From a virus (taxonomy: Duplodnaviria > Heunggongvirae > Uroviricota > Caudoviricetes), in the IMG/VR virus record IMGVR_UViG_2703718806_000009: DNA of 8,057 bases; one strand, given 5' to 3'. A program made the position numbers and the translations under genes. The notes beneath the pieces were generated by a model. It made no database searches, was not told the DNA's origin, and worked only from the letters and a program-made list of their open reading frames with translations. The stretch's first letter is position 1. Each line of letters starts with the position of its first letter. Positions 1,876-8,057 of the stretch are shown here, one piece after another.

Positions 1876-1897
1876 GGCGAGGGATTTCTCCCTCGCC
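1876..1897 (-). promoter_or_regulatory. perfect 9-bp-stem hairpin (GGCGAGGGA-TTTC-TCCCTCGCC) 8 nt 3' of the hok stop; candidate hok mRNA 3' structural element
   Basis: Perfect inverted repeat read directly from the sequence. hok-family mRNAs carry 3' elements (fbi) that pair with the 5' end to control translation and stability. No U-run follows, so it is not a classical terminator. Confidence 0.4.
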
Positions 1898-1904
1898 AGG
1901 TCTC

Positions 1905-2060
1905 TTACTCCTCAGGTTCGTAAGCTGTGAAGACAGCGACCTCCGTCTGGCCGGTTCGGATTCGTACCTCGCAGAGGTCTTTCCTCGTTACCAGTGCCGT
2001 CATTATGACGGTTAAACAGATGACAATCAGGGCGATTAACATCGCCTTTTGCTGCTTCAT
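1905..2060 (-). CDS. hok: Hok-family type I toxin (HokD/RelF-like small membrane toxin)
   Basis: Translation MKQQKAMLIALIVICLTVIMTALVTRKDLCEVRIRTGQTEVAVFTAYEPEE is near-identical to Hok/RelF as I recall it, with one N-terminal transmembrane helix and the conserved KDLCEVRIRTGQTEVAVF periplasmic part. Confidence 0.85.
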   Translation of the reverse strand: MKQQKAMLIALIVICLTVIMTALVTRKDLCEVRIRTGQTEVAVFTAYEPEE

Positions 2061-2331: not shown

Positions 2332-2883
2332 TTAAAGCTCCATTAATTTTCCGGCCAGTTCATCTCGTGGCATTACCAGCCATCCGCGCGATTTAAGCAA
2401 AGCCAGGGCTTCTTCAACCGTCACCAGCTGGCCTGGCGCATAACTTCGGATGAAGGCGGTTTTATCGTCACGGATCGCCAGGTGAAAATCGATATTCATT
2501 TTTCCCATAGCCCGCTCTTTCTCGTACTGGTTGAAGTAACTGTCTTCGAGTTTTTCGAATACTTCCCACGCCTGATCGGTTTCGAGCATTTTTGCATGAC
2601 GGGCTGCTCCGCGTTCTGTCCAGAGGATGAGAGTGCGGGTTTTGGGAGAAATTTTCATCTCATTTTGCGACTCGTTTAAAACTAGTCGCAAATTTTTGAG
2701 CTCATCACCAACAGCTTTAAAGAAGTGTTTTCCCTCAATAAATCGAGATTTATTTTCATGGTGATTCTGCTGTATACGGATTGCTTCTGTTCCGTAAAGG
2801 CGGGCGAGTAACTCAGTTGTGATTACAGGAATCTGGTTATAAGTGACAGGGGAAAGGTTTTTGACAGTAACTTGAGTCGTCAT
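2332..2883 (-). CDS. ORF6N/KilA-N-like DNA-binding domain protein (phage antirepressor-like)
   Basis: 183-aa ORF with AGAGGG RBS ~8 nt upstream of the ATG. N-terminal segment IPVITTELLARLYGTEAIRIQQNHHENKSRFIEGKHFFKAVGDEL resembles the ORF6N pattern (..LA.LYG.E...I.QN...N..RF.EG..FF). C-terminal half not recognised. Confidence 0.6.
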   Translation of the reverse strand: MTTQVTVKNLSPVTYNQIPVITTELLARLYGTEAIRIQQNHHENKSRFIEGKHFFKAVGDELKNLRLVLNESQNEMKISPKTRTLILWTERGAARHAKMLETDQAWEVFEKLEDSYFNQYEKERAMGKMNIDFHLAIRDDKTAFIRSYAPGQLVTVEEALALLKSRGWLVMPRDELAGKLMEL

Positions 2884-3044
2884 GATAACGCCCTCTGGTT
2901 GATGAATTTAACTATCACCACCTTCAGGTCTCAATCATCAGGTGGCGAGACGTACAGGGTTGAGACTACCGGATCAACCAACCGGCCAGCCTTTCGGCTG
3001 CCCCATACGCCTCACCATAATTCAGATGTGCGTGCGCATACGAC

Positions 3045-3069
3045 AATAAAAAACACGCTCGCGGCGTGT
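3045..3069 (-). terminator. rho-independent terminator on the minus strand, ending the dicC-replication operon upstream of the ORF6N gene
   Basis: Stem ACACGC (3053-3058) / GCGTGT (3064-3069), loop TCGCG. On the minus strand the hairpin is followed by UUUUUUAUU (complement of 3045-3052). Minus-strand specific. Confidence 0.55.
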
Positions 3070-3154
3070 GTCTGTCGCGGTTGAATATCCGGGGTCTCAA
3101 TCCCGACGGTCAACTCGACCGTGCGGTGAATATAGCCCCGGATTAGTAATTACG

Positions 3155-5970: not shown

Positions 5971-6472
5971 AATTCCATCCGGCTTTTTGTTGGTACTGGT
6001 GACGATAGGCACGCTTGAAAGCGATTGCTTTTTCTATAAGCTCGTCTGTCTCACGTTCCACAACAGCTGGATCTGCAAAAAGCAGCCCGGACTCCACCAC
6101 ATCGCCATATTCTTTGTTTAACCCGGCAATCATGTACGTAATGCTTTTTCCGTCAGTAATTTCGCGGTACAACCTGAAATCACTAATCCGGATAGCCTCC
6201 ATAATTGCCGGAATCAGCGCCGTGAATTTTTCACGCTTATCCCTGGTGTCGATAGCCTTCCAGCGTTCGAATATCTTCACCCGGTTAACGCCAAGCGCAC
6301 GCTGATCAACCCCGCCATCATCAAGCGTGACACGCTGAACATCGATGTTCGGGCGTTCCTGTAGAGCCCAGAAGGCTTCAGTGATTAATATCGTCGCCTG
6401 CTCCTGCGTCATTCCTGGTCGGCTTATCCAGGCATCCAGGGCATCGCGTGCCTGCTCAAGGGTGATTTTCAT
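5951..6472 (-). CDS. YdaT-like protein (occupies the cII position between cro-like and replication genes)
   Basis: 173-aa ORF overlapping the dicC stop by 17 nt and the initiator start by 20 nt. Segment DKREKFTALIPAIMEAIRISDFRL resembles my recollection of Rac YdaT (REKIQKLIPAILAILPRELRHRL). Assignment is by memory and gene order. Confidence 0.55.
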   Translation of the reverse strand: MKITLEQARDALDAWISRPGMTQEQATILITEAFWALQERPNIDVQRVTLDDGGVDQRALGVNRVKIFERWKAIDTRDKREKFTALIPAIMEAIRISDFRLYREITDGKSITYMIAGLNKEYGDVVESGLLFADPAVVERETDELIEKAIAFKRAYRHQYQQKAGWNYEPSFC

Positions 6473-6686
6473 TGTTCAACCGCCCCGCCCGCTTCGTCTT
6501 ACGATATTCGTCATAAACTTTGGGGTCATACTGAAGCTCCCCGCCGGATGCCTCTTGCAGGCGCATCGCGCGACCTTCAGGTACTAGCTCCCCTTTCCAG
6601 CTATAAAGCGAAGCCAAACGAATACCAGCAGCTTGTGCAAGTTTTGTTTTTGAACCGAAATACAAAAGTGCATCAGTTTTAAGCAT
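6456..6686 (-). CDS. dicC: DicC-like Cro-type HTH regulator
   Basis: 76-aa ORF divergent from dicA. MLKTDALLYFGSKTKLAQAAGIRLASLYSWKGELVPEGRAMRLQEASGGELQYDPKVYDEYRKTKRAGRLNNENHP matches Qin DicC as I recall it, in length and sequence. Confidence 0.8.
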   Translation of the reverse strand: MLKTDALLYFGSKTKLAQAAGIRLASLYSWKGELVPEGRAMRLQEASGGELQYDPKVYDEYRKTKRAGRLNNENHP

Positions 6687-6769: not shown

Positions 6770-7177
6770 ATGGATACAAAAAATTTAACCATTGGCGAAC
6801 GCATTAGACATCGCCGAAAAAACCTCAAATACACCCAAAGGTCTCTTGCTAAAGCCCTGAAAATTTCTCATGTATCGGTTTCACAATGGGAACGGGATGT
6901 TAGCGAACCTACAGGGAAGAATCTTTTTGCCCTCAGCAACGTACTGCAGTGCTCGCCAACATGGATTCTATTTGGCGATGAAGACAAGCAGCCATCACCA
7001 CCTATTGAGGAGCCAGTTGCTCTATCCCCCAAAGAACATGAGCTCCTTGAGCTTTTTAATGCATTGCCTGAATCAGAACAGGATGCTCAGCTCACCGAGA
7101 TGCGCGCCCGAGTAAAAAATTTCAACAAACTCTTTGAAGAGTTATTAAAAGCCCGTCAACGAACAAACAAAAGATAA
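6770..7177 (+). CDS. dicA: DicA-like CI-type repressor (XRE-family HTH), repressor of the dicB division-inhibition operon
   Basis: 135-aa ORF MDTKNLTIGERIRHRRKNLKYTQRSLAKALKISHVSVSQWERDVSEPTGKNLFALSNVLQCSPTWILFGDEDKQP... matches E. coli DicA as I recall it. HTH at residues ~20-40. Confidence 0.9.
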   Translation: MDTKNLTIGERIRHRRKNLKYTQRSLAKALKISHVSVSQWERDVSEPTGKNLFALSNVLQCSPTWILFGDEDKQPSPPIEEPVALSPKEHELLELFNALPESEQDAQLTEMRARVKNFNKLFEELLKARQRTNKR

Positions 7178-7341: not shown

Positions 7342-7494
7342 ATGGATACACTCAATCTTGGCAACAACGAATCTCTGGTATGCGGTGTGTTCCCTAACCA
7401 GGACGGCACGTTTACCGCGATGACGTATACCAGAAGCAAAACGTTTAAAACTGAAGCTGGCGCGCGTCGCTGGTTAGCCAGAAACACTAACTGA
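7342..7494 (+). CDS. ydfA: YdfA-like small protein (DUF1391)
   Basis: MDTLNLGNNESLVCGVFPNQDGTFTAMTYTRSKTFKTEAGARRWLARNTN, 50 aa, GAGG RBS 5 nt upstream of ATG 7342. Track ORF 7237..7494 would begin at the -35 box of its own promoter, so the internal start is preferred. Confidence 0.6.
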   Translation: MDTLNLGNNESLVCGVFPNQDGTFTAMTYTRSKTFKTEAGARRWLARNTN

Positions 7495-7757
7495 TTAGCA
7501 CCAGTAAAAACAGGTTGCCACTGGTTAATTTACCCTGAAAAGTCAGGGCATAACACGAAAGCGCACGGAGAAGCTCGTCTCTCTGTACTTTGTCGTTAAA
7601 TTTAATTCGACCGTGCGCTTCCGGTTTTGGCAATCCGCGAAATGGCGCGGCGGTAAGTATGGCTGGGGCTTCCTCCATTGCTCCAGAAAATGCACCGGGT
7701 TGTCAGGTTGACCATACACCTGAGTGACAACACCGCCACAACAACCTCTGTTATCAC

Positions 7758-7797
7758 TTTTCTGGTGATTCGGCGGAAATGGATATCCGCCATTTTT
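7758..7797 (+). ncRNA. dicF: DicF-like small RNA (short variant) ending in an intrinsic terminator
   Basis: UUUCUGGUGA (7759-7768), the 5' motif of DicF as I recall it, then terminator stem GGCGGA (7772-7777) / TCCGCC (7786-7791) and AUUUUU (7792-7797), between ydfA and dicB as in Qin. Boundaries approximate; the 5' end would be made by processing. Confidence 0.45.
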
Positions 7798-7974
7798 AAA
7801 GTGTATTTTGTGATGCGGTGAATGCGGCTAAGCGCACGCGGAACAGTTAAAACAAGCGGTCTTTTACTGGCGTAACAGACATCAACTAACAATCCGGCGT
7901 TAATTGTTAACTGGTTAACGTCACCTGGAGGCACCAGGCACCACATCACAAAATTCATTGTTGAGGACGCGATA

Positions 7975-8057
7975 ATGGAAACGTCACTACCAAACGTTAA
8001 TACGTCTGAAGGGTGTTTTAATATTGGTATTCTGCTCAGTAACCGGGAGTTTACTGA
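7975..8057 (+). CDS. dicB: DicB-like cell-division inhibitor, 5' partial (runs off window end)
   Basis: ATG 7975 with GAGGA RBS. METSLPNVNTSEGCFNIGILLSNREFT resembles the DicB N-terminus (M.T.LPNVNTSEGCF.IG...SN) as recalled; position immediately downstream of DicF. Confidence 0.55.
   Translation, partial: METSLPNVNTSEGCFNIGILLSNREFT

Follow-up and report, generated by a model that had tools for sequence, protein, structure and literature searches.

DicF is a textbook prophage sRNA tied to the virulence of EHEC under low oxygen; it depends on Hfq, and its overexpression blocks cell division (filamentation). More broadly, sRNAs that arise from operon transcripts through RNase E cleavage and intrinsic termination form a general class. 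In Escherichia coli K-12 MG1655 the dicF gene (b1574) is 53 nt long and lies in prophage Qin, 175 nt upstream of dicB. The 3′ region of the K-12 RNA pairs with ftsZ and pykA and its 5′ end with xylR (PMC5069750), and manX is likewise paired by the 3′ end (PMC5861419). In the mutant DicF9, which has an intact 5′ end and a mutated 3′ region, the repression of ftsZ is lost (PMC5069750). The 5′ end of the K-12 RNA is made by RNase III/E processing, with RNase E generating the end itself (Faubladier 1990, as cited in PMC8687705); such processing is known for K-12 only. The spread of DicF has been counted from copies ">99% identical" to K-12 (PMC5069750), and a Rfam-derived number of four DicF copies has been given for EDL933 (PMC5331693). 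K-12-like copies alone are discussed in the literature examined, and an earlier account of divergent homologues is possible: a full-text search for the sequence of the allele described here returned no paper, and Faubladier & Bouché 1994 may already describe divergent dicF homologues.

We analyzed a stretch of 8,057 nt from the IMG/VR record IMGVR_UViG_2703718806_000009 (Caudoviricetes), termed the window, for which the initial annotation had proposed a DicF-like element of about 40 nt upstream of dicB at 7758-7797 (TTTTCTGGTGATTCGGCGGAAATGGATATCCGCCATTTTT). A 458-nt stretch is identical in E. coli CB6837, where it belongs to a lambdoid prophage adjoining ompW. At this locus RefSeq annotates dicC, a DicA-like repressor, a DUF1391 (ydfA-like) gene and dicB, and carries no feature over the dicF-slot element. 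The element is thus located as DicF is, between ydfA-C and dicB in a DicA-repressed operon of a Qin-type prophage, and the dicB start at 7975, 178 nt downstream, agrees with the position proposed at the outset. Positions 13783-14421 of locus L001 (window + 1401) place the prophage beside ompW, as in the deposited PPompW phages, which carry a dicF of the K-12 type and not the short allele. RefSeq also calls a hypothetical protein of 63 aa at 7487-7678 (-), opposite to the operon and within the conserved dicF-precursor leader; K-12 has no annotated counterpart, and the call is possibly spurious.

Coordinates of the dicF-slot element and of its neighbours in the window.
Feature	Position	Strand	Basis or remark
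dicC (Cro-like regulator)	6456..6686	-	
DicA-like HTH repressor gene	6770..7177	+	
ydfA-like DUF1391 gene, first in the dicB-type operon	7342..7494	+	
Non-coding leader upstream of the slot (precursor transcript)	7530..7752	+	Homologous to the K-12 ydfC-dicF interval
Precursor hairpin ATCACT / GGTGAT	7753..7769	+	Folding of 7728-7800 and the matching K-12 segment
dicF-slot element, DicF-like RNA (class B)	7759..7797	+	Predicted mature RNA, 39 nt; alignment to K-12 dicF, fold; 5′ end placed by homology at the start annotated for K-12 dicF, 3′ end from the U-tract
Single-stranded 5′ seed UUUCUGGUGAUUC	7759..7771	+	First 10 nt as in K-12 DicF
Intrinsic terminator: stem GGCGGA/TCCGCC, loop AATGGATA, tail ATTTTT	7772..7797	+	Fold, terminator scan
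Strongly structured dicB leader (read-through transcript)	7798..7974	+	
dicB, 5′ part, cut by the window end	7975..8057	+	Annotated by RefSeq in L001, the identical locus

Alignment of window positions 7600-8057 with K-12 Qin yielded a mean identity of 87% over 458 nt and placed the element exactly on dicF. K-12 dicF does not map elsewhere, and the element is homologous to it by position and flanks, which upholds its designation as DicF-like. At 39 nt it is close to the length initially estimated and 19 nt shorter than K-12 dicF in the alignment, a net shortfall that is composed of a 2-nt and a 17-nt gap. Common to the two are the 5′ end UUUCUGGUGA, corresponding to the first 10 nt (TTTCTGGTGA), as well as five basal stem pairs GGCGG...CCGCC and the TTTTTAAAGTG tail; the retention of a 5′ motif and a terminator, as first read from the sequence, was thereby corroborated (first 10 nt shared, 6-bp stem, U5 tail). 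Between these shared blocks K-12 has 43 nt, whereas the window has 24 nt. The hairpin interior consists of the 10-nt AAATGGATAT in the window and of TATCAGTTTTACTCCGTGACTGCTCTG in K-12, and the spacer before the stem reads TTC in the window and CGTTT in K-12, indicating that the K-12 interior was swapped and not just deleted. The initial view that the central region of K-12 DicF is missing therefore stands for the ftsZ-pairing region, which is absent, but not for the interior as a whole, which is replaced by a different 10 nt next to a differing spacer. The initial description of K-12 DicF as an RNA of about 53 nt whose internal region pairs with ftsZ is correct (b1574 annotation, PMC5069750). 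The absent module is AGUUUUACUCCGUGACUGCUCUG, which mediates ftsZ, pykA and manX pairing in K-12. Within the xylR-pairing 5′ end UUUCUGGUGAC the element matches K-12 over the first 10 nt and departs from it over the following 5. As the origin of this short form, termed class B, we tried a simple deletion starting from the K-12 allele, class C or class E (see below) and rejected it because the interior sequences do not match. Overall, we favor with a probability of roughly 0.6 that class B is an orthologous, strongly diverged dicF allele carried by a lambdoid prophage of the Qin/Rac type within its early-left (dicB) operon.

The predicted fold of the element comprises a stem formed by 7772-7777 and 7786-7791 (6 bp, 5 of them G-C) with a loop of 8 nt and a U5 tail, amounting to -11.1 kcal/mol. 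A consensus terminator scan reports the site at 7772-7797 on the plus strand, in agreement with an intrinsic terminator, although the hairpin is unexceptional compared with shuffles (z = -1.5). Upstream, the loop of the precursor hairpin coincides with the position matching the K-12 DicF 5′ end. Both local hairpins persist when a read-through RNA of 296 nt is folded. The dicB leader is strongly structured in this 296-nt fold (z = -3.79); TTTTGTGATG (7806-7815), which follows the terminator immediately, is paired to CATCACAAAA (7944-7953), just before the dicB Shine-Dalgarno sequence, and the dicB start codon is predicted to lie inside a local hairpin. Both leader pairing blocks are present in the aligned copies of the window, O157, E. 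albertii and K-12, and a TTTTGTG block is found 3′ of the terminator in every slot class. The pairing blocks together with TTTTGTG suggest a putative control of dicB translation that depends on read-through.

On lifting of the DicA-like repressor, the operon transcript would either end at the slot or continue into dicB. Termination, together with a cut in the loop of the precursor hairpin, would then give rise to an RNA of ~39 nt with a free 5′ seed of 13 nt, and any trans-acting role would rest on this short seed. The class B element is most likely an operon terminator or attenuator gating transcription into the toxic dicB, and it may yield a ~39-nt RNA besides terminating. The Hfq-CRAC supplement for Sakai O157:H7 (Tree 2014, EcOnc sRNAs) has no entry at the class B coordinates, an absence that is weak evidence, since canonical DicF is unlisted there too and the operon is normally repressed.

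Contrary to what its designation would imply, the Rfam DicF model, against which the initial annotation had proposed to align the element, does not recognize it. RF00039 (gathering score 48 bits; 76.7 bits for the K-12 dicF control) has no match in the window at gathering and none within 7650-7900 at E<=10. Other alleles of the slot score 77 bits (class A2), 61.1 bits (class D) and 43.5 bits (class C), so that Rfam accepts just classes A and D, both carrying the ftsZ module, while class C falls narrowly below the threshold. The Rfam matches in the window are sok, C4 and isrK. The C4 antisense RNA (69.4 bits; 2938-3022 (-)) and isrK (51.2 bits; 3048-3122 (-)) are direct neighbours and precede an ORF6N-domain gene at 2332-2883 (-), and the same pair occurs again in the unrelated loci L159, L222 and L242. 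A complete hok/sok type I toxin-antitoxin module is formed by sok at 2055-2229 (-; 117.3 bits) and hokD at ~1893-2048 (-), adjoined by a RelE/ParE toxin, annotated as two overlapping CDS, and its HTH partner.

The alleles at the slot were collected by scanning IMG/VR with patterns anchored on the conserved flanks only. This revealed at least seven sequence classes at the same position before dicB and with the same flanks, which differ in the 5′ sequence and the hairpin interior and have only the terminator base and the U-tract in common. Among 5,426 complete E. coli genomes, class A (the K-12 form) is found in 3,976, class B in 442 (~8%; 528 places), class D in 207 and class E in 163; class C is represented by about 630 records at >=95% identity in the complete E. 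coli set. Every intact class folds as a terminator; class B is the weakest of them with its -11.1 kcal/mol, as the hairpins of the others range from -14 to -21 kcal/mol. It occurs in many O157:H7 strains, such as SS52, where it lies in the prophage at tRNA-Ser/mtfA, and Sakai, where it lies in prophage Sp14 (NC_002695.2, 2,707,678-2,707,710) between ECs_2767 and dicB (ECs_2768); it is found in Escherichia albertii as well. Genomes can hold several classes, as exemplified by E. albertii NBRC 107761 (B and C) and the IMG genome 2531839666 (B and D). Among 50,697 deposited phage genomes class B was found in none and the K-12 form in 22. Positional orthology, and the fact that 442 complete E. coli genomes carry this very allele, make the element more than a chance hairpin, and class B is a real, widespread and unannotated dicF allele. 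Class C (L009, L110, L135 and E. coli records), present in O157:H7 and O121, is devoid of the ftsZ-complementary ACUCCG block.

The main alternative, which we regard as less likely, is that the slot of class B is decayed or minimal and holds a bare intrinsic terminator: a released fragment would have no trans function, and conservation would reflect termination and processing for the benefit of dicB. Consistent with this reading, the terminator base and the U-tract are the only feature present in all seven classes, the free seed measures just 13 nt without significant predicted pairing to any known DicF target, and the absence of class B from the deposited phage genomes means that it is seen in resident prophages only. 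Sequence variation within class B speaks against it. We compared 32 distinct class B loci that were chosen by flank anchors and slot length and not by the sequence of the element. The precursor hairpin and the 5′ seed (7748-7771), neither of which a terminator would need, are invariant (0 of 24 columns variable) and thus the least variable stretch of the region, while the leader varies in 67 of 153 columns (7545-7700) and in 12 of 47 (7701-7747). For the terminator stem-loop 3 of 20 columns are variable, for the spacer at 7861-7910 32 of 50 and for dicB 23 of 83. The low variability of class B could stem from recent spread and not from selection. Variants of the class B stem-loop comprise a G-U wobble, one mismatch and two loop changes. 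Throughout the intact slot classes the basal stem is kept, with a single compensatory exchange in class D (GGTGG/CCACC) and two wobble pairs, a covariation that is not significant, with 71-75 of 500 shuffles doing equally well. Furthermore, a truly decayed derivative exists and looks different: class H, derived from class E (L184, L199; slot gap of 95 nt), has lost the 5′ arm of the terminator and forms no hairpin (-3.0 kcal/mol).

Going beyond an orthologous allele, it is conceivable, if doubtful, that the dicF slot is a modular, hypervariable sRNA cassette with exchangeable seeds and interiors, class B being a functional minimal member whose 13-nt seed would address targets other than ftsZ. 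In that case, the terminator base and flanks would be fixed and each prophage would deliver its own regulatory RNA; the invariant seed of class B would regulate host or phage targets, and O157:H7 would have more DicF-type regulators than the four now counted. A search of the window for complements of the seed returned only the element itself and one site at chance level.

To assess target pairing, each RNA was cofolded with sliding 30-nt windows of the target and the self-folding energies were subtracted; unrestricted RNAduplex was discarded because it produced unrealistically long duplexes. For K-12 DicF this approach recovers all four published sites (ftsZ, pykA, manX and xylR). The short allele reaches -7.5 to -10.7 kcal/mol on the same targets at other positions, which is within the background of shuffles, an imperfect control as shuffles lose the self-structure. 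The xylR site is paired over 13 bp (-19.7 kcal/mol) by the K-12 seed and over 7 bp (about -9 to -10 kcal/mol) by the short allele. The pairing comparison envisaged by the initial annotation for ftsZ, xylR and pykA thus gives background only for ftsZ and pykA and a xylR helix shortened from 13 to 7 bp. With the ftsZ, pykA and manX modules absent and xylR pairing halved, neither division inhibition nor repression of the K-12 targets is expected: the short RNA should, on these predictions, no longer interact with ftsZ, pykA and manX and should have lost most of its pairing with xylR. The allele is most likely not a division inhibitor by these pairing models, and the missing ftsZ module predicts a negative outcome for filamentation upon overexpression of the class B RNA. 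It is accordingly highly improbable that class B is a functional DicF equivalent that has retained ftsZ repression by way of the 5′ seed or the loop. Such a contact would consist of UUUCUGGU pairing with AUCGGAGA at the ftsZ Shine-Dalgarno sequence in an 8-bp helix with three G-U pairs; however, K-12 DicF has the same 8-bp option, and DicF9, which retains the seed, nevertheless loses ftsZ control (PMC5069750), making residual control via this helix unlikely. Moreover, the predicted -7.5 kcal/mol lies within the shuffle background, as 19 of 25 shuffles are as good.

The sequence CACAACA is present just upstream of the element in the window and in many class B copies. A role as an AgvB-like sponge of GcvB via this motif at 7737-7745 has a very slim chance of being correct. 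CACAACA is the GcvB R1 target consensus (PMC4104026), and positions 7728-7797 give a weak Rfam AgvB match (15.2 bits, E = 1.5), which falls well short of the RF02702 gathering score (56). AgvB genes sit between PR′ and the lysis genes (PMC7873438), unlike the class B element; the mature RNA is predicted to begin downstream of the motif, and CACAACA is replaced by GCTGCAACGCC in the class B loci L122, L123 and L162 as well as in K-12. AgvB identity was therefore rejected as a chance match, given the wrong locus, the low score and a motif that is inconstant and outside the predicted RNA. HnrS, a multicopy EHEC prophage sRNA, is located in late genes and unrelated to the class B element. Finally, that the segment is part of a protein gene on the minus strand can be dismissed: an ORF of 118 aa exists at 7602-7958, but it is unannotated in the identical RefSeq locus, its frame is broken by the 19-nt class differences and, inside class B, by a net +1 nt between O157 and the window, and the K-12 minus-strand ORFs in this region are different and non-homologous.

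Returning to class B as a diverged dicF allele, the counts of DicF that rely on near-identity or on Rfam miss several alleles, including class B in Sp14 of O157:H7, and we infer that the four copies of EDL933 exclude it. The allele also points to a gap in the Rfam definition of the DicF family and in genome annotation. Class B represents a natural 'module-deletion' experiment, in which the 5′ end and the terminator are kept without the ftsZ, pykA and manX module; owing to this loss it can reveal the solo roles of the conserved 5′ end and the terminator, and can show whether dicB-type operons need an ftsZ-targeting RNA. The interest of the locus lies in a slot that may be a modular, polymorphic cassette, in DicF counts that miss classes and in the presence of the allele in O157:H7.

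Compared with known systems, class B shares with the RNase E-released operon sRNAs the internal cleavage of a longer transcript and a 3′ end at a terminator, differing in that its biogenesis is deduced from the K-12 homologue only. The EHEC anti-sRNAs AgvB and AsxR are likewise very short, prophage-encoded and terminator-ended, with a conserved 3′ and a variable 5′ part (PMC4104026); unlike class B, they occupy a moron site between PR′ and the lysis genes and have their own promoters, and neither sequence nor model connects them to it. Among the slot classes, class C resembles K-12 in the 5′ end and departs from it in the hairpin interior GGCGGCATCTGTTTGCCCATGAACTGATGTCCGCC, class D has a 5′ end unlike K-12 yet the same ftsZ module and is accepted by Rfam, and classes E, F and G differ from K-12 in both the 5′ end and the interior. 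Class B is the shortest compared with classes C-G and has the weakest hairpin, whereas flanks, terminator base and U-tract are alike. Relative to K-12 DicF (RF00039) itself, class B is 19 nt shorter, with a replaced interior and without the ftsZ/pykA/manX module, but it has the same slot in the dicA / ydfA / dicF / dicB operon, the same precursor hairpin, the same terminator base and the same U5 tail.
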